Assembly: GCF_963921235.1 (NCBI RefSeq) | Contig: NC_086097.1 | Span: 157,358,001 to 157,422,000, forward strand | Direction: 5' to 3' | Source: Mobula hypostoma | Lineage: Eukaryota | DNA length: 64,000 nt | Shown here: piece after piece, positions 894 to 64,000 of the stretch | How the letters are laid out: the number at the start of each line of letters is the position of its first letter | Position numbering within the stretch: the stretch's first letter is position 1 | Notes under the pieces: model-generated | What the model was told of the DNA's origin: nothing | Databases searched by the model: none | What the model saw: only the letters and a program-made list of their open reading frames with translations | Position numbers and translations under genes: made by a program

Positions 894-905
894 AATGGCT
901 GGGGG

Positions 906-3900: not shown

Positions 3901-3947
3901 ACGGAGGGAAGGCTGGGCGGGGTTCTGAGTTGGATGATCAGCCATGA
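906..3947 (+). pseudogene. CR1 ORF2 (APE endonuclease plus reverse transcriptase) with two nonsense mutations
   Basis: CVNARS, GITETWL, VYRPP, GDFN and SDH endonuclease motifs; stops TGA at 2046-2048 and TAA near 2409-2411 where the sister copy (48318-50736) has AGA and TTA; RT is open from 2418. Confidence 0.93.
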
Positions 3948-6982: not shown

Positions 6983-8916
6983 ATAGGTAGCATGGCCATG
7001 TTGTAATATTATGAAAATATGATATGAATGTGAGAGTTAATGTAATAAATGGCAGAAACTCAAAACTGGGGACTAAGTTGGAATTGAAAAGCTAAGCACC
7101 CCAAAGGAGCATAGAGTTGCAAAATGGTCCAGCTAGAGGGCTCTTTCAAAAGACTTCTTTCTATACAGCACATTTCTAGGAATATTCCTTCACTGAAATA
7201 CAAAAGATGCAAATAATGATTGGGAATGCCGATATGTGTAGAAATGAAAGATGTGACAGGAAACATGACTTGAAGCAAACAACAGACTATGTAACAACAA
7301 TGAAGCTAAATTTAGGTAGAGAACCCTCATTGCCAAATGTTCTGCTTGGAGCATTTACTGAAAACTAGATAAAAGAAACAGCAGATTATTCTGTTTCAGC
7401 ACTACGGTAACTATACGGATATTTGTTGTACTAATTGACTGGTGGATTCTGCCAAGGCAGAAGTTTGAATTGCAGTATCATGACACACATTAAATATTCT
7501 CTCTATTAGAATACATTCATTCATCGAGGCCTGCACCCATTTCCTTTACTTTTCCAAAGATAAGGCAATGCCAGCTGCTCACAGGTAAGGATAGTGGATC
7601 AATAAGAGTTTAGATACTTACACTGCTCAATATTTAGATGAAAATACCTCAACTTACAATTTAGTTAATTGCAAAAATAAAAATAGAAAAAGCAAGTAAT
7701 ATTCAGAAACTCTGTCAGCACATGTGAAGAGACAGACAGAGTTAATTTTTCTAGTCAATATAGAGTACACCCAGTATAGGATAAAGCTTAGTGACCTCAT
7801 CCATGGAATCTAAATGAATAATTGGCATCACTGCCCCCACGTAATGCTCAAGAGAATATGCCCTAAACTCACCAAAGCTGCAGTCTCCATCAGGTAGAGG
7901 GCAGAGATGACATTAACATGTTCCAATGCATTTTTTATACACTTACTATTTCTCCAGCACTAGCACAAATATCTCACAACCTCCACACACTTCCAGCTAT
8001 TCAGATGTGAAGAGTATATCTTCCCAAATTAACTCACTAGCATATTTCTCTCTACCTCTCTAGTCAGAGAGCAACGTAAGAAATATCAAGTGATCTCAGC
8101 TGGGTCTCATCCAGACTTGTCCGCTAGTTATTTTCCTCCATAGATGCTGCCTGACGCGTTGTGTTGCTTCAACGTTCAGTGTGTGTCGATCAAGATTAAA
8201 TGAGTCATTGGCTTTGTATTCTGGATGACGCAGTCATTAGAACTGGAATAGCAGCACAACAAAAGAAACACTGTATCATACCAAGAGATCAGACCGTACC
8301 CATGCGATGAGAAACAGAAATAATGTTTCAGGTCCAAGATTCATCACCGGATTTCCTTTCCTGTTTTACTTTGGAAAATTATGGCTGTTTATGACTTAAT
8401 CTATAGTTCATATTCCACTTTTACCTCATGCAACAACTTTGTTTGATTTGCAAATTGCACATGCATATGCATGTGCCTCTTGCTTCCTTCTCCTTCATCA
8501 TGACCATATGTGTGGGTTTTTCTTCTTCAAACTGCCATAACTCTGACCTGGCAAACAGTGACCATCTCAGTGGTTGCACACAGCCGTTGCTCAGGCGTTG
8601 AGGTTGAATATGATTAGAACCTCCACATGATGAGCTGTTGGTCTTGAGCTGACTGCAGCACAGCCAAGCGTAGAGAAACTGCAGATTCCAATGACCAATG
8701 AGGTGGTTGCACATGGGTTCTGTTGCACTGGACTCAGAGGTAGGCAATAATAAAGAAGACTAGAAGGAATGGTTGATGAAAGTGCCCTGTGACATGATGA
8801 AGTAGTGGTCCTCTTCCTGTGCTGAACAACTGATTCAGGTGTAACTTTAACACAGTTAATTGATAACTACAAGAAAAGACATTAGGTCGGCAGCAATTCC
8901 GTACTGCAGGAGGATA

Positions 8917-37447: not shown

Positions 37448-37645
37448 TCAGACTTCAGTCTGAAGGTCAATGATGTCCTGTCCACCAAGTGGTATCGTAG
37501 CTCCTGTTTTCTCCCATTCCACTGTTCTCATTTCTAAGGGAGAATGCTGAGTGGGATCCAGTTCCTTTTTCAGCCATGTGGGTGGAGATTGTATTTTTCG
37601 GATCCCTTCCCAAGGCCGCTTGATTGGAGTCTGCTTCTCCTGCTG
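37448..37645 (-). CDS. ADGRB1: Adhesion GPCR B1 (BAI1), last coding exon
   Basis: Translates [65 protein letters not shown], matching my recollection of the BAI1 C-terminus ([21 protein letters not shown]2 and BAI3 end in GDFQTEV); phase 0 acceptor ...atattag. Confidence 0.95.
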
Positions 37646-37946
37646 CTAATATGATGAGAAGCTTGTTATTTACAAGTAAGACCAAGGAACTAAGCTCCAG
37701 AATTAGAAATAAAGGGCTTCCCATTTATTTGAATTTTATCAACTAAATACATGCAAGATCCAAGATAAATGCAGAAATCTATGGAAGCATGCTGTGTGTT
37801 CATCAAATTCTGAAAAAAAAAGACTATACTTTCACTTGCATATAAAAAACACAAGAAATTCTGTCACTGCTGGAAATCCAAAGTAACATATACAAAATTC
37901 TGTAGAAACTCAACAGATCAGGCAGCACCCATGTAAGTGAACAAAC

Positions 37947-37982
37947 AGCCGATATTTCAGGCCAAGACCCTTCTTCAGGACT
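37947..37982 (-). ncRNA. Minimal type I hammerhead ribozyme motif
   Basis: AGUC-CUGAAGA-AGG(gucuugg)CCU-GAAA-UA-UC^GGCU; full core, helix I with one G-U pair, palindromic AUAU helix III. Confidence 0.7.
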
Positions 37983-38773
37983 AGAAATGACAGGTAGGTG
38001 GAGATGGCCAGATCAGCCATGGTCTTGTTGAATGACAGAGCAGGCAGATAGCCTACTCCTGCTCCTATTTCTTAAGAAAGGAAGGGGGAAGATGCCAGAA
38101 TAAAAAAGGTTTGGGGAGGAGGAGGATAGCTAGGAGGTGATAGGTGAAGCCAGGTGGGTGGGAAAGGTAAACAGCTGGAGAGGAAGGAGAGTAGAGTGAA
38201 CCACAGGAGAAAGGGAAGGAGGAGGGCACCCAGGAGGAGGTGATAGGCAGACAGGAAGAGATAAGAGAGCAGAGTGAGGAATAGATGAAGAGGAAAGGGA
38301 GAGATTTTTTTTACTGGAAGGAGAAATCAATATTCATGTCATCAGATTCGAGGCTAAAAAGATGGAATATAAGGTATTGCTCCACCACCGAGGGTGTCCT
38401 CATCTTGGCACAAGAGAAGGCCATAGACTGATATGTCGGAACGTGAAAGGGAATTGGAATTACAATGTTTCGCCACTGGGAATTTCTGCTTTTGGCAGAG
38501 CGGAGGGCCCCGATGAAGTGGTCCCCCAATTTATAACGGATCTCACCAATGTAGAGGAAGCCTCATCGGGAGTACTGGACACAATAGACATCTCTGGCAG
38601 ATTCACAAGTGAAGTGTTGCCTCAGAGATGGCCCATGCTGAGCTCATCATTTTCCTCAACTTTACCTCCAACTTCCACCCTGCCCTTATATTCACTTAGT
38701 CCATTTCTGACACCTCCCTCCCCTTTCTCGATCTCTCTGTCTCCATCTCTGGAAACAAACTGCAGAGCAGCAA

Positions 38774-39002
38774 ACAACAGGAATTCTGCAGCTGCTGGAA
38801 ATTCAAGCAACACACATCAAAGTTGCTGGTGAACGCAGCAGGCCAGGCAGCAGCCGTAGGAAGAGGTGCAGTCGACGTTTCAGGCCGAGACCCTTCGTCA
38901 GGACTAACTGAAGGAAGGTCTCGGCCTGAAACGTCGACTGCACCTCTTCCTAGAGATGCTGCCTGGCCTGCTGCGTTCACCAGCAACTTTGATGTGTGTT
39001 GC
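38774..39002. mobile_element. Young fold-back mini-element (PLE termini only) inserted into the older PLE
   Basis: 86-bp inverted arms 38807-38892 and 38917-39002 with 3 mismatches; 13-nt duplication tgcagagcagcaa / tgcacagcagcaa. Confidence 0.9.
38870..38905 (-). ncRNA. Minimal type I hammerhead ribozyme motif
   Basis: AGUC-CUGACGA-AGG(gucucgg)CCU-GAAA-CG-UC^GACU; all core nucleotides, GUC cleavage triplet, perfect helices I and II, palindromic ACGU helix III. Confidence 0.8.
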
Positions 39003-41739
39003 ACAGCAGCAACTTGTATAAGCCTACCGATTCCCACAGCTGTCTTGACAACCTCTTCCACCCTGTCTCCTGTGAAATTGCTATTCTGTTTTCTCAGTTC
39101 CTTCATCTCTGCTATATCTGTTACCAGGATGTGGCTTTCTTTTCCACAGCATCAAAGGTGTCCTTCTTCTTCAACAAACGGGTTTTCCTTCCTCCACCAC
39201 TGATGCTGCCGTCACCTGCATATCCTCCATTTCCTGAACAACCACGCTCACCCCATCCTTCCACCATCTGAACAGTTAGAGATCCTTCTGTTCTTACCTA
39301 CCACCGCATGAGCCTCTGCATCCAACACATCAATTCTCTACGACTTCCACCATCTCCAAAAGGATCCTACCACCAAACACATCTTTACCTCCCCCTCTTC
39401 ATTTTCCACATGGATCACTCCCTCCGTAACTCCCTTGTCTTCCTCTCTCATCTTCATTTATGGTCCCAAACAGTCCTTCCAGGTAAGGTAGCGGTTCACC
39501 TGCGAATCTGCTGGGGTTGTCTATGTATCTGGTTCTCCTGATGTGGCCTCCTCTACATTGGTGAGGGCTTTCGTAAATTCGGGACTGCTTCATCGAGCAG
39601 GAACTTCCAGGTGGCTAAACATTTTAATTCTGATTCCCATTCCGATATGTCGGTCCAAGGCTTTCTCGTGTCATGATGAGGCCACCGTCAGGGTGGAGGA
39701 GCAACACCTTATATTCCATCTGGATAGACTCTAACCTGATGGCATGAATATTGATTTCTCGTTCTGGTAAAACAAACTCCCCCCACCCCCCTGGTCCTCT
39801 ATTTCCCATCTGGCCTCTTACCCCTTTTACTCACCTGCAAATCACCTGGTGCCCCTCCTTCTTCCTTTACACCCAGGTTCCACTTTCCTCTCCCCTCAGT
39901 TTCCTTCCTCAGCCCTTTACTTTTGTTACCTGTCTGGCTCCAGCTATCACCTTCTAGCTATCCTCCTCCTCCTCCCCCCACCTTTTTATTCCTTTCCAGT
40001 CCTGATGAAGGGTCTCTGCCTAAATTGTCAACTGTGTGTTCATTTCCATAGATGCTGCCTGATCTGCTGAGTTCCTCCAGCATTTTGTGCGTGTTGCATT
40101 AAAATTGAATGCTATCTTTCTTTTTCAAGTTGTGTGAGAATATGCTTGTGGTGTCAGTTCCTGAACTGGGTAAACAGAAATAATCACACTTTCCTCAGAG
40201 CATAATGGTTGCAGTGTGATCATGACTACATAATTACCTCCCAGCTGAGAGATGGAAGTGGGGTCAGTGCAACACAATCGTTTGGACAGAAGGTTTATTG
40301 GACGACCATAAAGAAAAGACTAAGGAAAATTGGGAGCATTGTAGTTGTGACCTCACTTACACATAAAATTCTTCAGTCTTTTAAGCCATATAATTGGTTT
40401 GCACATAGAATACATTCACATTTGACAGCGCACATAAATGGAACTTTAGGCTGCCATTACTGAAATCTCCCCAGGGGACGACTTGATGGGACCATAAAGA
40501 ATAAATCCTAATGGTGTTTGTTCACTTTACAATCTTAGTGCATCTGTTTCTGCACACTTCCTGATAGCAGTCATAATGTGAAATAGTCACTATGTTAAAA
40601 AGGCTGTATTTTTTGGTGCTTAGAAGAATGAACAGTGATCTTACTAAGACACGCAAGTTCCCAAAAGGACACGTCAAGGTGGATGTTGGGGCATTTCACT
40701 GGAGGTGTTTAAAGAGCCATTTCCTTTTGGTAGATGGAGGGGGAGATAGGAACGGAGATCAGAGTTATAGGAGACCAGCACACAGAGGAGTTGAAGCCTG
40801 GAGTGTATCAGTCACGGTTAAATTAAATGATAGGGCAGGCTTGAAGGGCCAAGTGACCATTCCTGCTCCAATTTTCTTGTGTTCTTCTGCTAACTTAGAA
40901 ACAGCCATCAATAAATTTTATGATTTACTGTCGTTTGTCTAGTTATTATAAGTCTTATATGGCTCTTCTGATTTAATGCAAATTTATGGAAAAACTCACT
41001 TAAAACGCAATTAGCTCCCTATATAATTCATACTACAACCTTCGGTATTCCTTAGTATTATGCAGTTTAATGGGTGAAAGCAGCCAGTCATTGTAAAATA
41101 ATATAATCTGCGAGGTTAGCACATTTTAAAAGAACTTCATTTAATTATCTTAGTAGGTTAGAAAATAGTTTTAAGAAACTTTTCTCAGCAGACTTGCTTT
41201 TGTGCAACTTACAAAGCAAGGAGAAGTGATAGAGGAGAGCTTTACGCCTGAGTGGTCTCAAAAGCTACATGTCGATCACAAATGGGGTCCCATGACAATT
41301 TTATATTCAGCCTAACTCTCTATCATGGCCTCTGTCAAATGCATCTTTCCAGACACGCTATTTTCCCTCCATTTATTTCTTGGCACACAAACTGGACTGC
41401 TGTAAGATGTTGGGTTTTGGGGCTCTCTTTGAAAATTCTTAATTACTAGGCCATTCAACTGAGCACACTGCCAGAGGCATCCTGAAAACAGTAAACTGTT
41501 AAGAAGTCAGTTAGTAAAAACATCACACTTACATTGAGACTGGCTTTATCACTTCCTGCTGATGAAACACTCCATCGTTTCACAGCCTATTAACAAAAAA
41601 AAAATTTAAAAACTAATAAGTACAGAACAGCATTAATAAGGGCCAGTACTACAATACTGCATAATATGCATTACAAATACCTGCTGAAAGTGTAGTAACA
41701 ATATTTATTTATTTATTTATTTATTTATATTTATATCTA

Positions 41740-41995
41740 TATTTATTGAGATACAGTGCAGAACAGGTCCTTCTGGCTCTACAAGCCACACTGCCCAGCA
41801 ACCTTTAAGTCTAATCACAGGCCAATTAACTTACCAACCAGTACTTATTTGGACAGTGGGAGAAAACCTGGGCACCTGGAGAAAATTCACATGGCCAAGG
41901 GGAGAACATACAGACTCCTTACAGGCAGTGGCAAGAATTGAACCTGGGTTGCTGGTACTGTAAAGAGTTGTGCTAACCACTATGCTACTGTGTCG
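41740..41995 (-). mobile_element. tRNA-derived SINE (HE1-like) with adjacent (TTTA)n
   Basis: Reverse complement head has A box tagcatagtgg and B box ggttcaattc; CR1-like 3' tail. Confidence 0.8.
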
Positions 41996-42631
41996 TTCCA
42001 CTACAGAAGCTCAAACACTAGCCAATATGGAGATGCTGATGAGCTAAATGTTGGGGATTGTCAGCATTATGACAAAATAATTTTATAGTAAATACAATTC
42101 AAACATTACACTTATTCAAACGTGATTCTGTACCTGACAGGACTCAAAGGGGAGAATGTTTCTCCTGGCTGGAAGGAATCTAGAACCATGCGTCAATATC
42201 TAGGAATAGTGGATTAACTACCTAGGACTGAGATAAGGCGAAACTTTTCTATCAAAGAAGTTTGAAATCTAATATGTCGTATATATTTAAGAAGATGAAT
42301 AGAACTCTGGACACGAAATTTATCATTGAACATAAATGTAGCATGGAGTTAGAGGATCAGGCAAGATTATAATGTATGGTAGAACAGACTTGAAGGGCTG
42401 AGTGGTCTATTCCAACTGTTTTTTCATGCATCCATTTGTTTTGATCTAAATAATAATGTCTTTCTATGAGAAGTATTGCTAATACTTTGAAATTAACTTT
42501 GTATTGCTTGGATTGGACTAGTCAGAAGATAAATTAACATGAACAATAGCTTGGTGTTAAATCCTTTGGTGGTGTAATAATTGTCATAAATATTGTGATA
42601 TATCTTCAGATATATATCATATCTTGACCCA

Positions 42632-42955
42632 TATGAACATAAGAAATAGGAACAGGATTAGGTCATATGGCTCGTAGAGCCTGTTCCGCCATTCAAGAAG
42701 ATCATGGCTGATCTGGCCATGGACTCATCCTGCACCTACCTGCCTTTTCCCCTTAATCTTTACTTCCCCTACAATGCAAAAATCTATCCAACTTTGTCTT
42801 AAATATATTTACTGAGGCAGTCTCCACTGCTTTATTGGGCAGAGAATTCCACAGATTCACCACTCTCTGGGAAAAGCAGTTCCTCCTCATCTCCATCCTA
42901 AATCGACTCCCTTGAACCTTGATACTCTGTCCCATAGTTCTAGTCTCACCTAGCT
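42632..42955 (-). mobile_element. CR1 3' fragment
   Basis: RFRMEMRRNCFSQRVVNLWNSLP plus CR1 3' UTR. Confidence 0.9.
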
Positions 42956-42964
42956 CTAGATCCA

Positions 42965-43330
42965 ACATCGAAGGTTGTGGATTCAAGCCCCGTTCTGGTG
43001 ATCAGAGCACAATCATCTCATTTCATATTTCAATTCCTATGCAGTAGAAACACAGTTACACTCGAAAATCTAAATGTTAATCTGAGCATATGCCTCGCCT
43101 TTCCATGAATATAAAGAAGGTCCATTTGGATTCTTCTGAAGAATATGGGATTTAGTTCAACAACTTAGCTCGTACTTAACCTTCAATCAATATAACTAGA
43201 ACTTATTGGCCTACCCATTATTGCATTGATATTTACGGGGGCTTCTAGTGCAGATAGAGGCTACAACAATGACTGCAAAGCCCTTTGTACGTTGTGAGAT
43301 TGTGAAGGACACTGAATAAATGCAAGTCAG
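42965..43330 (+). mobile_element. Ancient DeuSINE-like (SacSINE1/AmnSINE1-type) remnant
   Basis: gaaggttgtggattcaagcccc B-box head, degraded central domain and ...gtgaaggacactgaataaatgcaagt tail; family call made from memory of the consensus. Confidence 0.5.
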
Positions 43331-45353
43331 TCAGTCAGTGCATCATGACAACACTGTACAATTTTACTGCCTTCAGATTTTTTTTTCCATTTTCCACGAT
43401 CTACAATTAAAATGGAAAAGACAAAATGGGTAAAATGATTACAAATAAATTTAAATTGACACTGCTAACACTGGCCAACATTAATTGGTATTTTCAGAGG
43501 GAACTTAGGTGCCAAAATTACAAGGCTTGATACTGCAATGAGAGTGCTGGCTTTGGTACTCTAATGCAAAATTTGGACAACTGCATGGAGAGGAAAGATT
43601 TAGAGGCAAATGGAAGTAGTTTAGATGGGCTTCTTGAAATGGACAGATTGGGCCAAAAGGCTTTTTCCATGTCATATGATTCGGTGACTCTAATTATAAT
43701 AAAGGGGATGTTCATAATTTCTATTTATTACATTAAATGTGTTAAATTTAACTGAATATATATTATATATTCTATGTGTTTGCTTTTTTTTGTTGACATT
43801 TGTGCAACTTGTTCTTTTTTATGCATTGGGGGGGGTTGATGTTTTTCATATTTTTCTTTGAATGTATTCCATGGTTTTCTTTGTTTCGTGGCTGCCGGTG
43901 GGGAAGATGAATCTCAGGGTTATACACACTTTGATAGTAAATGTATATTGAATCTTTGAAATTGTAATAGTTATTAATTCTTTGGTCCAAGCATGAAGAG
44001 CAACTTAAATTCAGAGGTGAGCTGACAGGCAGCAGCAACCAATGTAAAACAATGACCATTAATGGCATCAAGCAGCTTTAGCAAAACCTAAATCAATGTG
44101 GATCTGGACAAAACCCTTGTATATACAAAGCCATGTCTAACATAAAGGTTTTGCTTGCCACAGATTATCACCTCAGCGTTGTGCCCAAGGCTAACTGATG
44201 ATAAGTGACTTCCCCTCCACTATGAGGTCAAAAATCTGAATGTTCAAAGATGTTGATGAATGCCATTGTATTTTAGATCTACAGAAGGGAGCTCTAGTTG
44301 GGGATGATAGCAAATATTTGTAAATCTGAGGATGACTCAAAACTTGCCACTGCCAAGAACTGCAAAGCAGATAGTGTTAAATAAATGAAAATGGGATATT
44401 AACAAGCTGGTGGAATGTAACACATAGAAGATGGAATTTAAAGCAGAGGTTTGTGTGGTGATGTATTGTATTTTGGTAGAAAAATGAGGAGAGATAATAC
44501 AGCATATTGTTCTAAAAGGGGTGAAGGAGTAAAGAACCTCAAAGGAAATGGGCAGAAATCAGGACCAAAAACAGAAAATCGATGGCACAAAACATGTCAG
44601 AGGGTATGGCAGACAAGGCATGAAACCCCTTCATGTTTCTGCACAAGTGCTGCTCCAACAACATTCAGAAAGCTTAGTATCAGTCAGGAATAATCAGTTG
44701 GTTACATGCTAGCCCATCCATCAAGAGGTTCCCTTCGAATGTAAGTAACTTGTTTCCACTCCAGTTCCATGTGTGACTGTTTTCCATGTGGGGAGGCTGT
44801 TACACACCAGCTAACAACTGGCCTTTATAGAGTGTGGTCTTGACCAAATGGCAAGGATATCCAACAAAAATGTGGGCCAGCAACTCCATCTCTCTTCTTT
44901 CCCTCTTCCTATCCATCTTAATTTCCCTTCCTAAGATCTTTATCAATAGCCTTGACATTTCTGGACTAGAACATAGAAACAGGCCTTCCAGCCCACAAGG
45001 TTGTGCCGAACTAATGAGACTGGTAATCACAATTCCCAATAAAACTAATCTTTTCTACCTACACAATGTCTATATCTTCCATTTCCTGCACATTCATGTG
45101 CCTATCCAAGAGCCTCTTGAACACCTCTATTATATTTGCCTCCACAATCACCCCAGACAGAGCGTTTCAGGTATCCATTACTCTGTAAAATAACTTCCAC
45201 AACGCATTCACTTTGAATTTACCTCTCACCTTAAATGCATGCCCTCTGGATTTAGACATCCCAACCCTGAAGTAAAGATACTAATGTATACTCTATCTAT
45301 GCCTTTCAAAATCTTAAAAACCTCTATCAGATTTCTCCTCAGCTTCCAATACT

Positions 45354-46007
45354 TTTAAAAAATTTATTGAGACACTTGCAGAGTAGGCCCTTCTAGCCCT
45401 TCAAGCCTCGCTGCACAGCAACCCCCAATTTAACCCTAGCCTAATTACGGCCAGCTACATCGTGGTTGACACTCAGCTGGAAGGCCGAAGAAGCGCTATA
45501 AGGATCAGATGAAGAATGTTTCAAGGAAGAGCAAGATCAGACCCAAGGACCTGGAGGAGGTTGCTGCTGACCGTACCACTTGGCGACAACTCTGTAGGGA
45601 CGGGGTTCGTATTCTGAGATGGAAAGAACAACCAGAAGACAGGAGAAGAGAGCCAGGAGAAATGCAGCCATGGTTGCCACCACTACTACATATGCATGTC
45701 CCACCTGCAATAGCGCTTGTGGGTCCAGGATAGGACAGCATAGTCCTTCAAAGATCTCACCGTTAAAGCAGTGGACGTCATCATCAGATTTCGATGGACA
45801 ACCGAAGAAGAGAAGAATTATGGAACAATTCACAATGAGCCAATAACCTACGAATCAGTACCTCTTTGGATTGTGGGAGGAAACCAGAGGACCAGGAGGA
45901 AACCCATGTGGTCATAGGAAAACATACAAACTCCTTACAGACAGCAGGAGGAATTGAACCCAGGTTGCTGGTACTGTAAAGCATTATGCTAACTACCATG
46001 CCACCAT
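45354..46007 (-). mobile_element. tRNA-derived SINE (same family as 41740-41995), split by an RTE fragment
   Basis: A and B boxes at ~45950-46003; TSD aatact at 45348-45353 and 46008-46013. Confidence 0.82.
45451..45815 (+). mobile_element. RTE-clade LINE 3' fragment
   Basis: GRPKKRYKDQMK...LEEVAADRTTWRQL and a C-terminal YACPTCNSACGSRIG..SH-like zinc finger; GAA-rich tail; TSD aattacgg / aattatgg. Confidence 0.78.
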
Positions 46008-46465
46008 AATACTCCAAAGAAAACAAGTAAAACAATACAAGTTTGTCCAACATTTCCAGATAGCCCATGCCCTCTAATCCTGCCAGCATCCTGGTAAACC
46101 TCTTCAGTGCCCTCTCCAAAGCTTCCATATCCTTCCTATGATAAGGCAACCAGAAATGCATGCAATACTCTAGATGCAGCTTAACCTGAGTTTTGTAAAG
46201 CTGCAAAATTTCTCTCTGACTCTTGAACTCAGTCCCTCGACTAATAAAGGCAAGCATACCATAGGCTTCCTTAACATCTTATTGACTCGTGGAGCCACTT
46301 TCATGGATACTGACCCCAATATCCCTTTGCACATCAGCACTGTTAAAAGTCTTGCTGTTAACAAATACTGTCCATTTACATTTGATCTTCCAAAGTGAAA
46401 TACTTCATATTTGGCCTGAAAACTCCAACTGCCATTTCTCTGCCCATAGAAGGGGTACCTTCATC

Positions 46466-47670
46466 GTTGATGAAGGAAGAGCAGTAGATGTAGTGTATAT
46501 GGATCTCAGCAAAGCATTTGATAAGGTACCTCATGCAAGGCTTATTGAGAAAGTAAGGAGGCATGGGATCCAAGGGGACATTGCTTTGTGGATCCAGAAC
46601 TGGCTTGCCCACAGAAGGCAAAGAGTGGTTATAGACGGGTCATATTCTGCATGGAGGTCAGTGACCAATAGTGTGCCTCAAGGATCTGTTCTGGGACCCT
46701 TACTCTTCATGATTTTTATAAATGACTTGGAAGTGGAAGTGGAGGGATAGGTTAGTAAGTTTGCTGATGACACAAAGGTTGGGGGGTGTTGTGGATAGTG
46801 TGGAGGGCTGTCAGAGGTTACAGTGGGACATTGATAGGATGCAAAACTGGGCAAAGAAGTGGCAGATGGAGTTCAACCCAGATAAGTGTGAAGTGGTTCA
46901 TTTTGGTAGGTCAAATATGATGGCAGAATACAGTATTAGTGGTAAGACTCTTGGCAGTGTGGAGGATCAGAGGGATCTTGGGGTCTGAGTCCAGAGGATA
47001 CTCAAAGCAGCTGCGCAGGTTAACTCTGTGGGTAAGAAGGCATACGGTGCATTGGCCTTCAACAATCGTGGAATTGAATTCAGGAGCCGAGAGGTAATGT
47101 TGCAGCTATATAGGACCCTGGTCAGACCCCACTTGGAGTACTGTACTCAGTTCTGGTCACCTCACACAGGAAGGATGTGGAAGCCATAGAAGGGGTGCAG
47201 AGGAAATTTACAAGGATGTTGCCTGGATTGGGGAGCATGCCTTATGAAAACAGGTTGAGTGAACTTGGCCTTTTCTCCTTGGAGCGACAGAGGATGAGAG
47301 GTGATCTGATAGAGGTGTATAAGATGATGAGAGGCATTGATCGCGTGGATAGTCAGAGGCTTTTTCCCAGGGCTGAAATGGCTGCCACAAGAAGGCATAG
47401 GTTTAAGGTGCCTGGGAGTAGGTACAGAGGAGATGTCAGGGGTAAGTTTTTTTACACAGAGAGTGGTGGGTGCTTGGAATGGGCTGCTGGCAACAGTGGT
47501 TGAGGCAGATACGATAGGGTCCTTTAAGAGACTTTTGGATAGGTACGTGGAGCTTAGAAAAATAAAGGGTTATGGATAACACTAGGTAATTTCTAAGGTA
47601 GGGACATGTTCGGCACAAATTTGTGGGCCAAAGGGCCTGTATTGTACTGTATGTTTTCTATGTTTCTATA
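46466..47670 (+). mobile_element. CR1 subfamily 2, 5'-truncated
   Basis: DEGRAVDVVYMDLSKAFDKVPH to the tttctatgtttcta tail; 10-nt TSD taccttcatc at 46456-46465 and 47673-47682. Confidence 0.95.
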
Positions 47671-48317
47671 CTTACCTTCATCAGTCAACTACTTGCAAAA
47701 CTCAATCAGTTAATGAAACATGACTTGTTCTGCACAAAGTAATGTTGACTGTCTGTAATTATGCCATGGTTTGCCAAATGTTCATAAATCTTATCCCAAA
47801 GAATCTCCACCAGTAACTTAGTTGTTCCAGACCTCAGCAATCTCATCTCTTGCCTATCTCAATAACTTGGTGTACACCCAACTAGTCCGGAGGACTGAAT
47901 TACCACAAATTTTCTTTAAGGGGCCCATTACTACCTTACATTTTATCTTGAAATGCCCCAACAAGTTAGCACACTACTTACTATTCACAAACACGTTCTC
48001 GTATTTTGTAAATACAGAAGTAAAGCACTCATTAAGACCTCATCCACATCTTCTGGCTACAAACACGAAATCCCTCCTTTATCCCTGATTGGTCCTATGC
48101 GATCTGCCGTTATGCTCTTGCTCTTCAGGTATGCACAGAATGCCTTGGGATTCATTTTAATCCTAATGGCCAAGGACTCTTCAGGGCCACTCATGGCTTT
48201 CCTATTTCCCTCCTTGAGTTCTTTTCTGGTTTCTTTATATTCCTGAAGGTTTTAGCTTCCTAAACCTACTTCCCTTGACATCTAAGGTTTGCTGACCTTG
48301 TTATCCTTGTCCTTCTT

Positions 48318-50736
48318 TGTATGTGGGATTGTTTTTTGAACCAACATATCAAGGAACCAACTAGAGAACAGGCTATTCTGGACTGGGTTTTGAGCAATGA
48401 GGAAGGGTTAATTAGCAATCTTGTCGTGAGAGGCCCCTTGGGTAAGAGTGACCATAATATGTTGGAATTCTTCATTAAGATGGAGAGTGACATAGTTAAT
48501 TCAGAAACAAAGGTTCTGAACTTAAAGAGGGGTAACTTTGAAGGTATGAGACGTGAATTAGCTAAGATAGACTGGCAAATGACACTTAAAGGATTGACAG
48601 TGGATATGCAATGGCAAGCATTTAAAGGTTGCATGGATGAACTACAACAATTGTTCTCCCAGTTTGGCACAAGAATAAATCAAGGACGGTAGTGCACCCG
48701 TGGCTGACAAGAGAAATTAGGGATAGTATCAATTCCAAAGAAGAAGCATACAAATTAGCCAGAGAAAGTGGCTCACCTGAGGACTGGGAGAAATTCAGAG
48801 TTCAGCAGAGGAGGACAAAGGGCTTAATTAGGAAGGGGAAAAAAGATTATGAGAGAAAACTGGCAGGGAACATAAAAACGGACTGTAAAAGCTTTTATAG
48901 ATGTAAAAAGGAAAAGACTGGTAAAGACAAATGTAGGTCCCCCGCAGACAGAAACAGGTGAATTGATTATGGGGAGCAAGGACATGGCAGACCAATTGAA
49001 TAATTACTTTGGTTCTGTCTTCACTAAGGAGGACATAAATAATCTTCCAGAAATAGTAGGGGATAGAGGGTCCAGTGAGATGGAGGAACTGAGCAAAATA
49101 CATGTTAGTAGGGAAGTGGTGTTAGGTGAATTGAAGGGATTGAAGGCAGATAAATCCCCAGGGCCAGATGGTCTGCATCCTAGAGTGCTTAAGGAAGTAG
49201 CCCAAGAAATAGTGGATGCATTAGTGATAATTTTTCAAAACTCGTTAGATTCTGGACTAGTTCCTGAGGATTGGAGGGTGGCTAATGTAGACCCACTTTT
49301 TAAAAAAGGAGGGAGAGAGAAACCGGGGAATTATAGACCGCTTAGCCTAACGTCGGTGGTGGGGAAACTGCTGGAGTCAGTTATCAAGGATGTGATAACA
49401 GCACATTTGGAAAGCGGTGAAATCATCGGACAAAGTCAGCATGGATTTGTGAAAGGAAAATCATGTCTGACGAATCTCATAGAATTTTTTGAGGACGTAA
49501 CTAGTAGAGTGGATAGGGGAGAACCAGTGGATGTGGTATATTTGGATTTTCAAAAGGCTTTTGACAAGGTCCCACACAGGAGATTAGTGTGCAAACTTAA
49601 AGCACACGGTATTGGGGGTAAGGTATTGATGTGGGTGGAGAATTGGTTAGCAGACAGGAAGCAAAGAGTGGGAATAAACAGGACCTTTTCAGAATGGCAA
49701 GCGGTGACTAGTGGGGTACCGCAAGGCTCAGTGCTGGGACCCCAGTTGTTTACAATATATATTAATGACTTGGATGAGGGAATTAAATGCAGCATCTCCA
49801 AGTTTGCGGATGACACGAAGCTGGGTGGCAGTGTTAGCTGTGAGGACGATGCTAAGAGGGTGCAGGGTGACTTGGATAGGTTGGGTGAGTGGGCAAATTC
49901 ATGGCAGATGCAATTTAATGTGGAAAAATGTGAAGTTATCCACTTTGGTGGCAAAAATAGGAAAACAGATTATTATCTCAATGGTGGCCGATTAGGAAAA
50001 GGGGAGGTGCAACGAGACCTGGGTGTCATTATACACCAGTCATTGAAAGTGGGCATGCAGGTACAGCAGGCGGTGAAAAAGGCGAATGGTATGCTGGCAT
50101 TTATAGCGAGAGGATTCGAGTACAGGAGCAGGGAGGTACTACTGCAGTTGTACAAGGCCTTGGTGAGACCACACCTGGAGTATTGTGTGCAGTTTTGGTC
50201 CCCTAATCTGAGGAAAGACATCCTTGCCATAGAGGGAGTACAAAGAAGGTTCACCAGATTGATTCCTGGGATGGCAGGACTTTCATATGAAGAAAGACTG
50301 GATGAACTGGGCTTGTACTTGTTGGAATTTAGAAGATTGAGGGGGAATCTGATTGAAACGTATAAGATCCTAAAGGGATTGGACAGGCTAGATGCAGGAA
50401 GATTGTTCCCGATGTTGGGGAAGTCCAGAACGAGGGGCCACAGTTTGAGGATAGAGGGGAAGCCTTTTAGGACCGAGATTAGGAAAAACTTCTTCACACA
50501 GAGAGTGGTGAACCTGTGGAATTCTCTGCCACAGCAAACAGTTGAGGCCAGTTCATTTGCTATATTTAAGAGGGAGTTAGATATGGCCCTTGTGGCTACA
50601 GGGGTCAGGGGGTATGGAGGGAAGGCTGGGGCAGGGTTCTGAGTTGGATGATCAGCCATGATCATAATAAATGGCGGTGCAGGCTCGAAGGGCCGAATGG
50701 CCTACTCCTGCACCTATTTTCTATGTTTTCTATGTT
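48318..50736 (+). mobile_element. CR1 subfamily 1, 5'-truncated, very similar to 1602-4027
   Basis: Near-identical alignment by eye; TSD ttcttt at 48313-48318 and 50737-50742. Confidence 0.97.
48963..50642 (+). CDS. Uninterrupted CR1 reverse transcriptase frame (559 aa, partial ORF2, no authentic start)
   Basis: All RT motifs and the C-terminus are intact; upstream part is frameshifted near 48655 and 48900; antisense to ADGRB1; expression is unlikely. Confidence 0.6.
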   Translation: MIMGSKDMADQLNNYFGSVFTKEDINNLPEIVGDRGSSEMEELSKIHVSREVVLGELKGLKADKSPGPDGLHPRVLKEVAQEIVDALVIIFQNSLDSGLVPEDWRVANVDPLFKKGGREKPGNYRPLSLTSVVGKLLESVIKDVITAHLESGEIIGQSQHGFVKGKSCLTNLIEFFEDVTSRVDRGEPVDVVYLDFQKAFDKVPHRRLVCKLKAHGIGGKVLMWVENWLADRKQRVGINRTFSEWQAVTSGVPQGSVLGPQLFTIYINDLDEGIKCSISKFADDTKLGGSVSCEDDAKRVQGDLDRLGEWANSWQMQFNVEKCEVIHFGGKNRKTDYYLNGGRLGKGEVQRDLGVIIHQSLKVGMQVQQAVKKANGMLAFIARGFEYRSREVLLQLYKALVRPHLEYCVQFWSPNLRKDILAIEGVQRRFTRLIPGMAGLSYEERLDELGLYLLEFRRLRGNLIETYKILKGLDRLDAGRLFPMLGKSRTRGHSLRIEGKPFRTEIRKNFFTQRVVNLWNSLPQQTVEASSFAIFKRELDMALVATGVRGYGGKAGAGF

Positions 50737-52309
50737 TTCTTTCTTACTGGAACCTCTCTGTGCAGTTGATCTTTACAAATGGCTGAAATATCCAAATGTC
50801 AAATGTGGACTTGCCCCATTAACTCTCCAGTTTCATGACTAATAGACTAGTAATTCTCCCTTCTCCAATTTAATATTCTTTTGCAAGATCCATACTTATT
50901 TTTTTAAATCTGTAGCTATCTTAAAACTTAAGGATGATCGTGATTGTTGCTATCCAAGTCTTTTCCCACCAGTCAGTCACCAGGCCTGGCTCATCCCTCA
51001 ACACCAGGCCCGTATGGCCCCTCCTCTTCTTGAACTTTCTACAGATTGATTTACAAATCCCTCTTGGATGCATGAAATAAACTTTCCCTCATCTGAACCT
51101 CTTGAAACCTCCCATCCTTGCCTGGTCTGCCCTGCATACGACTCAGATCCACTAATGTGTCTCAGCTTTCCCTGCTCTCTTATTTCAACTGAGGACAAAC
51201 CATAAAATCTTGCTTTGCCAACAATAGTTGTGCTCCTTGAACCAAGCAAAAACACCAGCAGCTTCTCAAGATTGGATAATTGATAGCATCTTTGACAGGG
51301 ATGCCCAGACGGCATAATTTTCAATACAAAATAAGACAGTGTCAGTGAGGCTCAGGTAATTTACAGAGCAGAAGACAATAAAATATAGAACAGTAAAACA
51401 CAAGAACAGGTCTTTTGGCCGTTGATGTTGGATGGAACTAATCGAGCTAATTACACTAATCCCTTCTGCTTGCACATGGTCCAAATCCATTCTCTGCATA
51501 TTCAGAATGGACAAGGGTTCAAAATTGTATATGACTTTAACTTAAAAACAGAACTTGCATTCATTCTGTGTCTTATATGCTTTTAAGGCTTTCCCTCAAT
51601 AATTCACACTTAATAAAATATATACTCACAACTAATGAAACAGGTTGAAGAGCCTGTTCCTGTGCTGTACTCTTCTATTTCAAAATGTAATGTGATTAAA
51701 AAAAAATGCAGAAGCTATTTTGTATGCAGTAAAGTTCAGGAACTGAAGAAATAATGCCTAGCTTTATCCCCAGGGTTGTAGAATTAAAACCAGCCATCTT
51801 AGGTTTGAAGTGAGAGTGGAGAGATACAACAGGAATTTGAGGAGCAACATTTTTCACCTAGAGGGTGGTCAGTATATGGAATGAGCTGCCAGCATTAGTG
51901 GCTGAGGCAGGTATATCAACAATATTTAATGGATACTTGAACAGGTACTGGACATGAGCAGGAACAATTTAGATGGATATGGGTCAAATGTGGGCAAATG
52001 GGACTAGCTTAGATGGGAATCTTGGTTGACGTGGACTAGTTGAGCCTGTTTTCATACCCTGTGGCTCTAAATAATCTGTTTTGATCCAATTTGTTAAGGA
52101 ATAAATGCTGGATTAAGACAGTGAAAACACAAATTTGTTGAAGAACCGTAAGTGGAACAGACCGGATGGTTCTTTACATTCCTACAATTATTACTATCAC
52201 AAATGGTGGCATTGTCCATTAGTGTTAAAAGTTACACTTTCACACATACTCAAGATGGCAAACAGATTAATACATCATCATAGAGAATCTCTGAAGATAC
52301 AACACTTCA

Positions 52310-53062
52310 CCATCACAGGCCTCCTCACTAATCTCCCTCCTGGCCCGTTCACATCCTCCCTCACTTCCATTCAGGGCCCCAAACAGTCCTTCCAAGTGAG
52401 GCAACATTTCACCTGCAAATCTGCTGGGGGTCATCCATTGTATCTGGTGATCCCAATGCGGCCTCCTCTACACTGGTGAGACCCATCGTAAATCAGAGGA
52501 CTGCTTCATTGAGCACTTTTGCTCCATCCGCCAAAAGCGAAACTTCCTGGTGGCCAACATTTTAATACCAATTCCCATTCCTATTCTGACATGTCAGGCC
52601 ATGGCCTCCTCTTGTGTCAAGTGAGGCCACCCTCAGGGTAAAATAGCAATACCTTATATTCCATCTGGGTAGCCTCCAACCTGATGGCATATCGATTTCT
52701 CCTTCCAGTAAAAAAATCTCCTGCCCCCTCCCCCACCCCTTCTTCTATTCCTCACTCTGGCCTCTTATCTCTTCTCACCTGCCTATCACCCCGCCCTGGG
52801 TCCCTTCCTCCTTCTCTTTCTCCTGTGGTTCACTCTCCTCTCCTATCATGTTCCTTCCTCTCCAGCCCTTCATCTTTCCTACCCACCTGGCTTCACCTTT
52901 CACCTTCTAGCTATCCTCCTTCTTGTTCCCCATCTTTCTATGCTGGTGGCTTGCCCCTTCCTTTCCAGTCCTCAAGAACAGTCCAGCCTGAAACATCAAA
53001 TGATTACTCATTTCCATCGATGCTGCCTGACCTGCGAAGATCCTGCAGCATATTGTGTGAGC
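52310..53062 (+). mobile_element. Penelope-like element 3' fragment (GIY-YIG region and terminal repeat), apparently inserted in an old minus-strand SINE
   Basis: TSIQGPKQSFQVRQHFTCKSAG...CGLLYTGET; degenerate core ctcaaga...gaaacatc; SINE head remnant at ~53065-53168. Confidence 0.88.
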
Positions 53063-54700
53063 TACAATGAAATGTTAGCTTAGGCTATGTGTTGAAGTCT
53101 CTGCAGTGGGCCTTCAATTCATGACCTTTTAATTCAGAAGTGGGCGTACTGCTGTAAAGCCAAGGCTAGCATACCTAATTTCACACTCAGAACATGCTCA
53201 GCAGGCAATTAATTAGTTTCTGTAAACATGAATGCCAACAAAGATCTATTATTATAAAAATATATATTGAAGTAAATGCACCACTAGCGAGGCTTTAATT
53301 GAAGTGCACAAAAGACAATGGTTTTGGCAAGTTTGTATTTTCCCCTGGAAAGTGGTCTGATAATTTCCATAGTTGACTATCATATTTTCCCCCAAAAACC
53401 ATACATCTTGACACCATCCCATCAAGTCGACTTCCCAGCTACATAACAGGGGTCATCACCAAGGTCAACTCCTTTCACTGTTGAACATTCGCAATTCTCT
53501 GATTGAACTTAATTAATGACAATATTACTATTGAGATATTAAGATAGGCAACTAACACAGTAAAAGCAAAGTTCAGGGATGTGATTTTGACAAGTTTTGG
53601 AATTTTTTTTGGATTGTCTTTCATTAATCAGGGAAATAAGTTTAAAGAGATTTGTATTTGTCCTCTGATTTGGCTGAAGTGCTTTTTCAAATAACCTACA
53701 TTTCAAAGAAAAACTTTGTTGAATCAATCAAAATTCTCTTGTGAGGTCTCTCAAGGTATTAAACATTGACTAGTGGTGTAACGTAGACATAAATGTTCGG
53801 GTACCAGCAAGTCACAATACATATATGGAAGAGGGGATTGAATATATTTCTATGTTTGCAAATAGCACAACACTGAGTGTAATTTTGAGCTTTGAGGAGG
53901 ATACAAACAGGTTCAAGGAGATTTGGGCAAACTGAGTGAATGGGCTCATACTTAGCTACAATGGCCCTTTGTCTTCAACTCTCCAATGGTCATGGTTACA
54001 AAGGATATGTATCAGATATATGTATACATGTCTAATGTATATGGTACATTTGACATGCATGTCAAATCTATGGAACACACTGAAGCCAATGCATCAATAT
54101 AATATGTCCAATGTATTGTACAGATTTATCCAATGTAGCCATTAGATGTATATCAGAAATGCATCCAATATATCTAATTTATCCAGGGGAAAGGTATAAA
54201 TGTGAAATTATGCACTAAAAACATTGAAAGATAGTATGCTGATTACTGAGGGATTGGGAAATCCTGATGTACAAAGGAATCTGTATACCAGCCACTAAAA
54301 ACAAACCTGCTGTTTAAGAAAACAAATGGTATATTGGCCCACATTGCAAGAGATTCAGAATACAGAAGCACAAATGTCTTCCAAGAGTTATACAAGGCTT
54401 TTAGCACACACCTGAAGAGTTATATGTAGTTCTGGAATCCTTTTCTAAAAGCCTGTACTTGTCACAGAGGGAATGCAATGAAAAGTTCACTAGACTAACT
54501 TTTGGGATGGAGGAAGTGAACCACTGGAGAATGAGAACGTCACTCTTGTAGCTGCAAACCAAATCATTATTATGACGAGATAGCATGTATAATTTGCAGT
54601 GAAGCTGTGACAATAATTTATGGCCATATGGACTACATGGGTAATGCAGAAAGGGTTTTGAATTTATGAGCCCTCTTGGATTACAGATACCCATTCTTAC

Positions 54701-54805
54701 TTTGTTGTCCACTGTTGGAGATTCTCTATCTTTCTCAGCGTGCTGAAGCTTCCTGTTTAGATCCTGAAACATGTCCTGATGCCGTTTTCTTGTGTGCATT
54801 ATTTT
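54701..54805 (-). CDS. ADGRB1: ADGRB1 penultimate coding exon (105 nt)
   Basis: [35 protein letters not shown]; acceptor tcttgctttcaatctctag, donor gtaaga; phase 0/0. Confidence 0.95.
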
Positions 54806-54901
54806 CTAGAGATTGAAAGCAAGACATCAGTTAAGATGCAGCTGAGTGCACCTGGTACAGAATCAACACTTAAAGCAGTGAACTTAGCAGAAAGGGCTCA
54901 C

Positions 54902-54937
54902 CTCAAAGTCTAATTCGGCGTATCTAGATTTTCTTCT
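54902..54937 (-). CDS. ADGRB1: ADGRB1 36-nt coding exon
   Basis: RRKSRYAELDFE; acceptor tttgttttccag, donor gtgagc; joins in frame to KIMHTRKR as in BAI1. Confidence 0.93.
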
Positions 54938-56171
54938 CTGGAAAACAAATTGGACAATTAGTAACATCTTTTTAGAAATAAATAGCAAATTACGATCCAG
55001 ATGGGGCAACTAATCTATTAAATCTACTTAAATCTATTTTAACAATCACAACTCCACTTCATCGTTGTCATCGTAATGTTTTTGGAGTTTCTTCATTAGG
55101 TTTTACCACGTTGTGAGGAGCCAGGGGAGATTTGGATAATGCCAAGCCTTCGAAAGTATTCTCTAATCTTGAAAATCCAAAAACATTTTGCTCAGATTGA
55201 CAAAAAGAACTTCTTTTTCACTGGGTAATCGGTATGGCACTATGCTTAATCATTTTAGGCAATCTCAAGTCAATTCCTTGATGAAGTGGCCGTAGCACAC
55301 TTTGTCTTGGCAATCTCATTCAGATCTGCTACAGGATAGCTGATGAGTGAAATTAGATATTATTCTGCTACAGCAAGAGACATTTGGAGCTTAATCAGAG
55401 ATGTTTTGTTGGCACAGAACTTCACTCTGCATCTAATTGTGTAAAACCTGACCCGAGAATACTTCATGCTGACACTGATTTTTCGAAAGAAAGTGTTGAC
55501 TTAACTTTCTTGACAAACACAGCAACAAAAAAAAATTAAAAGAACTCAGATGTAAAAGGTTATTGAAATAAGTCTTTGTAAAATGAGAAAACACTACATA
55601 ACACTTTTCATTTCCCCAGACACATAACACAAAGACATAAATCATTCTGGAATGCTGACCACATCACTTCAAGCAGATGTCACTTTCAATATAATGGTAC
55701 TCCATACAAAAGCATTTTACAAAGCACTTACTCAGGGAGATAGTGGTCTGAAGTCATTTTGGGTCAAAGCACAATGATAGATGTAAAAGGATTATATTAT
55801 ATAAAGCAGATCAGGGTTTGAACTGGGGAGGAATGAGCCCTGTAAAGTAGCTGCTTCAAAGTGACACTGAGGTTGATGGATCAGGATCCTCTCCAACACT
55901 GTTCCTTTGCTTTCTCTTTTATTCTGCAAGCCATAACTCAAGTATATTTAATAATGTCTACAGATAGTCAAAGGTTCTTCAGGTTCAAGGTGATCAGGTT
56001 TAAACAGCTCAAATTCTTAATAATTTACTGTCAGTAATGTACTTTGTTAGATTTACGTGAAAACTCTAGTTAAATGATAATGACTTGTGATCTTAGTTGG
56101 CACCGACCCATCCAAATTACAACCACAGGTACACTAATCTTTCAACCGAGGACAGAAGTTACTGAATAATT

Positions 56172-56398
56172 CTAGAACACAGAGCACAGAAAATCTACAG
56201 CATGTTACAGGCACTTCAGCCCGCAATGTTGTGCTGACCATGTAACCTACTCTAGAAACTGCCTAGAATTTCCCTACTGCATAACCCTCTATTTTTCTAA
56301 GCTCCATGTACCTACCTAAGAGTCTCTTAAAAGACCCTGTTGTATCCGCCTCCATCACCATTTCTGACAGTGCATTCCATTCCACGCACCCATCACCA
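56172..56398 (-). mobile_element. CR1 subfamily 2-like 3' end
   Basis: Reverse complement aligns with 47460-47670 and 27330-27540. Confidence 0.85.
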
Positions 56399-56523
56399 CT
56401 AATTCTAATGAAGGATCATGACTGTGAAACACTTAACTTTGCTTCTCTCTAAACATCTATTGCCTAACTTGATGAATATTTCAAGCACTTCGTTTTAATT
56501 CAGATTGCCAGTACCTGCAATTG

Positions 56524-56696
56524 ATACGTAAACACGGGGAATTCTGCAGATGCTAGAAATTCAAGCAACACACATCAAAGTTGCTGCTGAACGCAGCAGG
56601 CCAGGCAGCATCTCTAGGAAGAGGCACAGTCGACATTTCGGGCCGAGACCCTTCGTCAGGACTAACTGAAGGAAGAGCTAGTAAGAGATTTGAAAG
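56524..56696 (-). mobile_element. Solo PLE terminus (~170 bp) with 11-nt TSD
   Basis: Nearly identical to 38774-38917; acctgcaattg duplicated at 56513-56523 and 56697-56707; inserted at the end of an older related remnant (56400-56520). Confidence 0.88.
56628..56663 (-). ncRNA. Minimal type I hammerhead ribozyme motif
   Basis: AGUC-CUGACGA-AGGG(ucucgg)CCC-GAAA-UG-UC^GACU; core intact, helix II closes with A-C or a bulged A, helix III has a U-G pair. Confidence 0.65.
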
Positions 56697-57304
56697 ACCT
56701 GCAATTGTTGTTGTTTGCTTTTCAGTACTCAAATTGCGAGCGAAGGTTTGGTACTATTGTAACTGATAATGCTAGTGTGACAATACTGACTCCAAATCTA
56801 GTGACCACCAGAGGGGTGCCAGAAATGGGCTTAAATTTTGGTCTACAAATATTACTCACATTCTTCTTGGAATGTGTCTCTTAATTCTTATAAGATTTAT
56901 GCAATTCATGGCCATTCATTTCTTCAATGCCTTGTTTCAAAAATAATTTTTGCGTCATCTTAGCATTGAAATTGAAGGCTTAAAAGCCATAATAGACACA
57001 TTTTATGACCATACCAATGATATGTGACCCCTCATCACCCAATCTCCAACTCTTAGCATATTTGATTACATCCACCTTCTTCTAAAATGGTATGTCCATT
57101 GGTTAATCAATTTCATAATCTTCAATGTTTTTACTAAAACTAGCTCATCTCTTCCAATGGCTTCTATTCTTGCTCTTTCATTGTTGCCTCCAAACCCATC
57201 AAAGGTCAGTAACATCACGCAAAAATCCAGCATTATGTTTCACTAATATCCAACTCCATGTCAGGAAAGGCACAGTCACTCCTTCCAATGTCCACTAACT
57301 TGAT

Positions 57305-61398: not shown

Positions 61399-61458
61399 AT
61401 GCAAACACGAGGAAATCTGCAGATGCTGGAAATTCAAGCAACACACACAAAATACTGA
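61399..61458 (-). mobile_element. 60-bp PLE terminal tail fragment
   Basis: aaacacgaggaaatctgcagatgctggaaattcaagcaacacac matches the ends at 38774 and 56530. Confidence 0.75.
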
Positions 61459-64000
61459 TTAAATTCCTTTTTTCTTGCACTATCTAAATAATTTCTATGC
61501 TTGCATGCCTTGGAATATTAAAACTGGACATTAGTAAAGGAGAAATAGGTACGGTGCAGACATATGGAGGGGAAGGATTTATACAGATGAAATGCTGAAT
61601 TTTAATAGCTGGTACGCCGAATATAAAAATCAAAGAGAGTGGAACTCAATTTGTACAACACATTGTTAAACTATCATTATAATATTGTGTAGAGTCCCTG
61701 GATCCCCATTACAGGGAGCATTAAACAAAAGATCATGCAAAGCTGAGATTTCCTGGAACTGTCTCATTATGGAGTATGATTACATGGTCTAATGAAGGAC
61801 TCAAAAACCAGAAGCATCTCGCAGTAGAGCAGAGTGTGTTAAGAACGGACATAAAACAGTCAAAATTAAGAAAATTTGACAGACATCATTAAATATTGTT
61901 TCCACTGCCTAACAAATCAGCACAGGTGGTGTATGCATTTTGAATAGTCTCAAAAGAATTAAAAAAGATAAAATATTTTTCTGAGAAATCCAGTCCCTTA
62001 ACAATATTTTATCAGTGTTATGTAATTGAAAGTTGATTCTTCCTACCTTCAACTTCTGAGTGATTTCACATCACACCAGATAAGGCCTTTTGGCATGAGT
62101 CACTTTTGCACATCTAGCACAATTTTCCCTTTAGTCGTACACTGGATGACATGCTTTCCCTGCAGAACTATTTGGGAGCACTGTATAGGGTAACTAAGAT
62201 AAAGCTGTCTGTAATGTAAGCTGTTGTCAGTCATGCTTAAGTATAATATGCTAGATTGGGACACCTATAAACTCGTCTATTACGTATTAAAGTCAATAGG
62301 TTATGTTTCGTAAGTCTACAATTATTCTTTAAGGAGGTAACTTAATTAAAGCATGAGAGCTGTTTTGTTGACATAATTCATTTGCACTTTTAGATGTTGT
62401 ATGATAAAGTCCAATATCAGAAGGGTCTTTAGAAATCAACCAACTACGCACAACAATGATATGGGAATAGAAAACAGAATGCACTGAAAGCCATAAGCCC
62501 TGACTGAGGATAGTAACTTGTACCATTTCATGGCATATGTTCTTTGTCTCTTAATGTTCTGAATATCCATAAGTAAGTAGCAAGGGAAACAACTGGAATA
62601 TAAAGTTTGCTAATGACACCAAACTCTACATGTAGATCATCAGAATGATTTGTAGCCTTCGAGACATTCGAATGAATTAAGTGGATGAGGTAATGAATAT
62701 GAAATTATACATAAATATGAAATAAGACATACACAGTGGGGAGACTATGCTCACAGGACTTGTAAAACTCATGATTAAACACCACATTTAAGGGTAATTT
62801 TCTTAATTCTGCTCCCAGTATGACGATTTGCCTACTGGGAATGTGCATCAGCGATCTACATACACACCCTCCAAAGTATTCTGTCCTTCATATCAATTTT
62901 AGTGATAGAAAAACACAAATTTCCAATGTGAACTTTCAGCAAAATCAAACCAGGAGCACAAGGTCATAAAATCAGCCCTTTAGACTTCCATGTACAATTT
63001 TCATTATCCTACCTTCAACGGTACACTGACACATTGGAGAGAATTCAGGGATGAGCGACTAGGATTATTCTGGGATTTAGGGCTCTATAGATTGAAAAGA
63101 AAACACCAAGATCTGATCTTACTTCCATTGAAGAATTGTCAATTAAGGGACATACAGACAGACACAGATTATTCAACTTTGATTTCAATCATGGAACCAG
63201 CAAACACAAAAACAAATTTATCTAGCACCCCAAAGGAGTGGAGATTTTAAGATTTCTACCCACTGAGACATTAATTGGGTTAGGCAGAACCTACAGGATC
63301 TGGAAAGGAAATATGCCAAATTGACTTTCTATATTCTATGCTGTGCAAATTAAGATCCGGAAATATTAACAATTTATCAGAAATGCAAACTAACTTTTGT
63401 TTATTCAATTGGTGCAGAAGAAGAGTGGGATTTAATACGATAGGATTCTAACACACTGCAGTTTCTGAAACAATATAAATTCTACTCAAGTGAAAATGGT
63501 CTATTCTAAATCTGCAGGCAACAGTTCCCCATAGTTGCTTTTAATATTGGTACAATGTATATAACTTCCTAGAAAACATATTGCCCCAATTACGCTAAAT
63601 AAATCACCCACCTGTATTGAAGACCATGCCTCTGGCAAGACCGCAGAAAAATCTATACAAAACTGTTTTACTATTTGCTTATTTTTAGGATAAGAAGACA
63701 ATATATTTAATCTGTTAGAAATTTTATACCTTGGGCAGCTCACTATAAGTTTGCAAGGTTTGCATTTGTGTCCTTTTCCACAACTGCAAAAAAAAAGTTA
63801 TTCTTCGGTTAACTCCTAACTCACGCAAATCTTCACGTGCCAATCCAGAAAACAAATTGCCAGGAAATTAAGTTGCATTGGAAACATAACCAATTGCATT
63901 GCACTGTTGGCCCAATGAGCAATTTTTTTTTTACTCCATGGAGACACAGTTAAAACTGTGCAGCCTTGGTTCATACTTCCTCCCCCATGTTAGGGAGAAC

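Follow-up and report, generated by a model that had tools for sequence, protein, structure and literature searches.

A stretch of 64,000 nucleotides from the ray Mobula hypostoma (contig NC_086097.1, positions 157,358,001 to 157,422,000; hereafter the window, numbered from its first letter) was analysed for hammerhead ribozyme motifs in introns of the gene ADGRB1. Three minus-strand 36-mers, located by a first-pass annotation at 37982-37947, 38905-38870 and 56663-56628, were all recovered at these positions. They are minimal hammerheads, each borne by the terminal repeat of a separate Penelope-like element (PLE) insertion, and are very likely without effect on the host message. The motifs were classed as ordinary, passive transposon debris because the genome holds about 57,000 copies, no orientation preference was detected, and the predicted folds leave the ADGRB1 message uncut. 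Motif and element class are already known, and the copies described here are further examples of them. A very large ray family is added to a known class; the result matters little otherwise.

Hammerhead motifs and the insertions that carry them

The core boxes CUGANGA and GAAA...UH were present in all three minus-strand copies. Loop 3 was absent and positions 15.2-16.2 were palindromic in each copy (ACGU at 38870, AUAU at 37947 and, with a wobble, AUGU at 56628), so that helix III cannot close in a monomer, as had been annotated; the predicted homodimers closed without mismatch. C17, the cut site, was placed at 37951, 38874 and 56632. Some details of the annotation required correction. With a 3-bp helix II (AGG/CCY), the 56628 copy acquired an A·C mismatch; all three copies were suited by placing an extra A behind A9 and extending helix II to 4 bp (GGGU/GCCY). 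The nucleotide between 9 and 10.1 was A in 47 of the 51 ADGRB1 copies covering the motif. Helix I of the 37947 copy was AGUC/GGCU, the annotated GACU not being found there. Of the three, 56628 alone has the canonical G10.1-C11.1 pair; in 38870 and 37947 its place is taken by G·U. No account of how G·U at 10.1-11.1 affects hammerhead activity was found in the literature searched, passages of PMC544870 included.

Rfam, proposed earlier as a check, returned no hammerhead at gathering score in the 64-kb window and none among the eight matches at E<=10 in 37700-40300. Its microRNA matches, all below gathering score, reflect only the long hairpin described below. A generic descriptor lacking the extra A recovered two of the three copies together with one chance motif at 45346-45269. 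A chance origin of the motifs was rejected, since a reversed-pattern control gave 0 genome matches.

The annotated identity as PLE terminal-repeat hammerheads was upheld, as each motif sits in a pseudo-long terminal repeat (pLTR) and related copies follow a GIY-YIG frame. In the window and in six related loci (L005, L007, L065, L067, L068 and L069), the motif lay approximately 300 nt after a frame ending in GIY-YIG. The L069 frame comprised a reverse transcriptase (RT) C-terminus, a CX4CxxC linker and, C-terminally, a GIY-YIG domain with a CCHH-like motif. Pfam matches to GIY-YIG were weak (E=0.0024 and 0.00059), neither reaching the curated cut-off, and no full-length PLE frame was found in 16 related loci. 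By the features given in PMC8557442, the family is a Neptune- or Nematis-type PLE; between the two, from sequence motifs and host range only, Neptune is likelier as the host is a fish (PMC4209133).

The three motifs are pLTR hammerheads from three separate insertions, of which those carrying the 38870 and 37947 motifs differ in age. The 37947 motif, the older copy, sits in the pLTR (37985-37850) of the inverted arm of an old insertion (37850-38625, minus strand), which also contains a broken GIY-YIG remnant (38625-38320) and a 3' spacer. The direct arm of the same insertion (38619-40126, plus strand) comprises a broken RT end and GIY-YIG (38619-38762 and 39017-39761) and a pLTR (39995-40126), and is 78% identical to the inverted arm (468/598). 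The old RT remnant is split by a young 231-bp fold-back insertion (38774-39004) that carries the 38870 motif. This insertion consists of a pair of pLTR stubs placed head to head, with an 8-bp direct repeat on either side (38766-38773 and 39005-39012). The 5'-truncated pLTR arm of this insertion (38908-39002, plus strand) is 94% complementary to 38807-38901 and precedes it in the pre-mRNA. The 56628 motif is carried by a solo pLTR stub of 173 bp (56524-56696, minus strand) with an 11-bp direct repeat (56513-56523 and 56697-56707), 17.8 kb from the nearest intact sense copy.

Three plus-strand copies had been annotated as damaged. This description held for 39998-40033, in which G12 is changed and whose antisense is predicted to pair with the 37947 copy, and for 52967-53001, in the pLTR of a third old PLE fragment (52318-53086, plus strand; GIY-YIG remnant and pLTR). 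The copy at 38908 is instead the 5'-truncated arm, and its CUGA stems from the inversion junction.

Copy number, orientation and decay

Patterns for genome counts were chosen after the three copies had been seen. A strict pattern suiting two of the three gave 48,782 exact matches genome-wide, and a pattern suiting all three gave 57,255 (28,536 plus and 28,719 minus). The expectation was thus 1.05 copies per 64-kb window, with P(>=3)=0.09. Three copies on one given strand with zero on the other had P=0.01, and the genome contains approximately 54,000 such windows.

The first-pass annotation had noted that all three motifs are sense to the pre-mRNA. A meaningful sense bias was rejected and the shared orientation attributed to the choice of window: over the whole of ADGRB1 and its paralogue on contig C2 (1.35 Mb pooled), 16 intact copies were sense and 15 antisense (p=1.0). 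The paralogue (791 kb) contributed 10 sense and 12 antisense copies, and ADGRB1 outside the window three of each. All pLTR copies in ADGRB1 (n=112) divided into 59 sense and 53 antisense, and the 57,255-match pattern occurred 24 times in the two genes against 22.3 expected. Even orientation in long genes is small in-genome evidence against strong cutting of host pre-mRNA by these minimal hammerheads.

Core decay was assessed in the 51 of 112 ADGRB1 copies that covered the motif and scored above 40 bits. Core mismatches amounted to 25/296 (8.4%) in sense and 23/264 (8.7%) in antisense copies, and cores were intact in 10/27 and 9/24, respectively. Neither the orientation of copies in ADGRB1 and the C2 paralogue nor core decay in ADGRB1 departed from neutrality in a way that would signal host adoption. 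Variation clustered at CpG sites (11.1-12, 15.2-16.2 and 17-1.1), and the AUAU and AUGU palindromes are therefore most simply explained as CpG decay of ACGU. U stood at 11.1 in 84 of the first 100 strict matches, and the 15.2 CpG had decayed in only 3; the exact C11.1 form gave 5,457 matches. It is therefore likely that G·U (or A-U) stood at 10.1-11.1 in the dominant young subfamily, although this pair is reported as highly conserved; U at 11.1 in most young ray copies is unlike the conserved G10.1-C11.1 of PLE minimal hammerheads (PMC4209133).

Host transcript, predicted folding and alternative readings

ADGRB1 was confirmed on the minus strand, and the motifs as sense to it, by exon mapping and by the last exon, whose product matched the ADGRB1 of Hemitrygon and of Mobula with 100% identity over 63 aa. 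Its coding span is approximately 562 kb. The last coding exon (37448-37645, minus strand) ends QTEV, with a TGA stop at 37450-37448. The penultimate exon (41533-41586, minus strand) was placed by exon mapping and by contig depth arithmetic. The last intron (41532-37646) contains the 38870 and 37947 motifs. The 56628 motif lies in the intron at 63012-54938, upstream of two exons (54937-54902 and 54805-54701).

Four contig sets (X1-X4), guessed to be RNA, were compared with the window; contigs cannot reveal RNA ends, and the repeat region was swamped by family copies. In X1, X2 and X4, depth in the first bin to overlap the penultimate exon equalled the depth of the last-exon contig multiplied by the exon's share of the bin (for X1, 321.1 x 26/171 = 48.8; the second bin agreed too, 63.3). 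Last-exon contigs in these sets extended approximately 200-250 letters upstream, and 40362-41387 was uncovered. X3 did not have this depth pattern, and the exon-exon joint itself was not among the matches listed. The X1, X2 and X4 data fit a contig spanning the last and penultimate exons, and so normal splicing across the last intron; the earlier suggestion of an effect on splicing of the QTEV exon found no support.

Two further features relating to the host gene were recorded. The final acceptor (37640-37648) is a TAG-CAG-CAG run, and contig pieces begin at 37642 (X1 and X4) or 37645 (X2), which would fit alternative acceptor use adding or dropping one Gln. At C67:59526041-59526262 of the ray genome, a stretch with one stop codon matches the terminal part of the large intracellular exon of ADGRB1 at 69% and is possibly a pseudogene fragment.

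For the favoured reading, published work suggests that such motifs would serve in processing tandem RNA of the element itself, acting weakly as dimers and perhaps with help from a protein. After 5'-truncated and often inverted insertion, copies would undergo neutral decay, chiefly at CpG sites. The two copies of the last intron would pair within the pre-mRNA with antisense copies made earlier, and the intron would therefore be spliced out whole.

It had been proposed instead that a double hammerhead formed in cis by the 38870 copy and the 37947 copy could cut the last intron and tune inclusion of the QTEV exon. If true, a transposon ribozyme would control the PDZ tail of a synaptic receptor, which would be notable. 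Both copies have intact core boxes, are sense and lie 923 nt apart, and the dimer would be topologically nested; the CPEB3 intronic ribozyme, which reportedly acts on its host gene, would be a precedent. The evidence points away from cis cutting, which is considered extremely improbable. Helix III of the heterodimer (ACGU with AUAU) would consist of A-U, a C·A mismatch, G·U and U-A over 4 bp, in addition to the G·U at 10.1-11.1 in both copies. Predicted energies were -4.9 kcal/mol for the heterodimer vs -12.9 kcal/mol for a matched homodimer, and -24 to -32 kcal/mol for inactive duplexes. Isolated young copies were predicted to fold as a rod with the GACG core paired with the cut site (P 0.98). 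In longer context, 38807-38901 was predicted to pair with 38908-39002, which is transcribed first, in a 95-bp hairpin (94%) holding the 38870 copy, in keeping with the annotated caveat that this copy could be sequestered by its own fold-back arm. The 37947 copy paired with the antisense of 39998-40033 in a 2.3-kb predicted fold. Both last-intron motifs are thus predicted to pair with earlier-made antisense copies rather than with each other. Forcing the double hammerhead cost 28 kcal/mol even without the fold-back arm (1.0 kb), 140 kcal/mol with it (1.1 kb) and 437 kcal/mol over the whole repeat (2.2 kb). The two copies also belong to insertions of different age.

In a second alternative, expression of the element would lead to cleavage of sense copies that are not sequestered, such as 56628, either by pLTR RNA made at other loci and acting in trans or with an element protein. 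The 56628 copy has the canonical G10.1-C11.1 and pairs without mismatch to a young copy (-13.6 kcal/mol), although the inactive duplex is favoured over this by a wide margin (-31.8 kcal/mol). A lizard PLE hammerhead was active only on addition of its protein, but no RNA-seq reads ended at its cut site (PMC11167929). Family contigs were very numerous in X1-X4, whereas sense copies were not depleted in the two genes. Such latent cutting is regarded as very unlikely. Equally little weight is given to its widest form, in which approximately 57,000 intact protein-gated hammerheads in ray genomes, half of the intronic ones sense, would stay silent until Penelope protein or trans RNA is present and would then nick pre-mRNAs transcriptome-wide, including ADGRB1 upstream of its PDZ-ligand exon. 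A host effect may also arise from duplexes and not from catalysis: 200 nt upstream of the last acceptor, the nested inverted repeats would give rise to long double-stranded RNA on which ADAR editing or Dicer would be likely to act. The 95-bp hairpin, nested arms at 77-85% across 37880-40100 and an opposite-strand copy within 3 kb of 74 of the 112 ADGRB1 pLTR copies would all favour this. The contigs examined, however, come from many family copies, and editing of such repeats would be ordinary too, inverted Alu pairs being a parallel. A duplex effect on the host was given a very small chance.

Several points weigh against the reading as passive debris. Within ADGRB1, 6 of the structure-filtered intact copies were sense against 3 antisense (p=0.51), and only strong orientation bias is excluded by the pooled sample of 31 copies. 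No two of these 31 on the same strand lie closer together than the last-intron pair (923 nt). X1-X4 may derive from other species without the young insert. A fold-back arm is lacking at the 56628 copy, whose inactive monomer fold was not favoured in a 260 nt context; in these models this copy appears less clearly locked than the last-intron copies. Tertiary core contacts, proteins and co-transcriptional kinetics lie outside the energy model, and energy differences come out too large in long folds.

Related systems and further copies

Minimal hammerheads are described in pLTRs of metazoan PLEs, including Neptune of fishes, the monomer being inactive and dimers having low activity (PMC4209133). 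In vitro rates were very low, even for dimers (PMC6765202). Helix II has 4 bp in the ray copies vs 7-8 bp in Schistosoma, and the ray copy number (48,782-57,255) exceeds the 4,000 of coelacanth and 9,000 of Xenopus, counting methods differing between the studies (PMC4209133). The ray family resembles Neptune-type endonuclease-containing PLEs in its C-terminal GIY-YIG with two internal cysteines, its CX2-5CxxC linker, common to Neptune and Nematis (PMC8557442), and its head-to-head inverted pLTRs with 8-11 bp target duplications; inverted pLTRs with short target duplications are a described insertion pattern (PMC8557442, PMC3846280).

Non-LTR retrozymes share with the ray copies pLTR-related hammerheads, occurrence in a cartilaginous fish and many intronic monomers. 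Retrozymes and PLEs are both present in one cartilaginous fish, and approximately 43% of frog retrozyme copies are intronic, yet these are intron-depleted after size correction (bioRxiv 10.64898/2026.07.22.740005). Retrozymes form head-to-tail tandems, whereas the ray copies are solo or inverted, come from separate insertions and in one case are still joined to PLE coding remains; a retrozyme identity was rejected on these grounds. A literature search combining hammerhead, Penelope and shark found nothing on this ray family by title or abstract start, although cartilaginous-fish motifs may be listed in the supplementary data of PMC4209133 and the bioRxiv preprint.

Host-adopted intronic ribozymes, such as the hepatitis delta virus-like ribozyme of CPEB3 and amniote intronic hammerheads, resemble the present case in having a sense motif in the intron of a neural gene. 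They are single-copy, conserved and active as monomers, whereas the ray motifs are high-copy repeats without a closed helix III.

Additional decayed pLTR copies were present in the window at 5170-5375, 8102-8199 and 61406-61462. Downstream of ADGRB1, two of them lie head to head at 5303/5308; this pair includes a damaged hammerhead copy (5303-5170, minus strand) missing from the first-pass annotation. In upstream ADGRB1 introns (contig C1, approximately 157541600-157555900; loci L022-L024), two further head-to-head pairs had both hammerheads intact, 38 nt and 1.2 kb apart. Long interspersed nuclear element frames (endonuclease and RT), each broken into several and presumably CR1-like, were located at 894-3947, 13336-15232 and 48279-50642.

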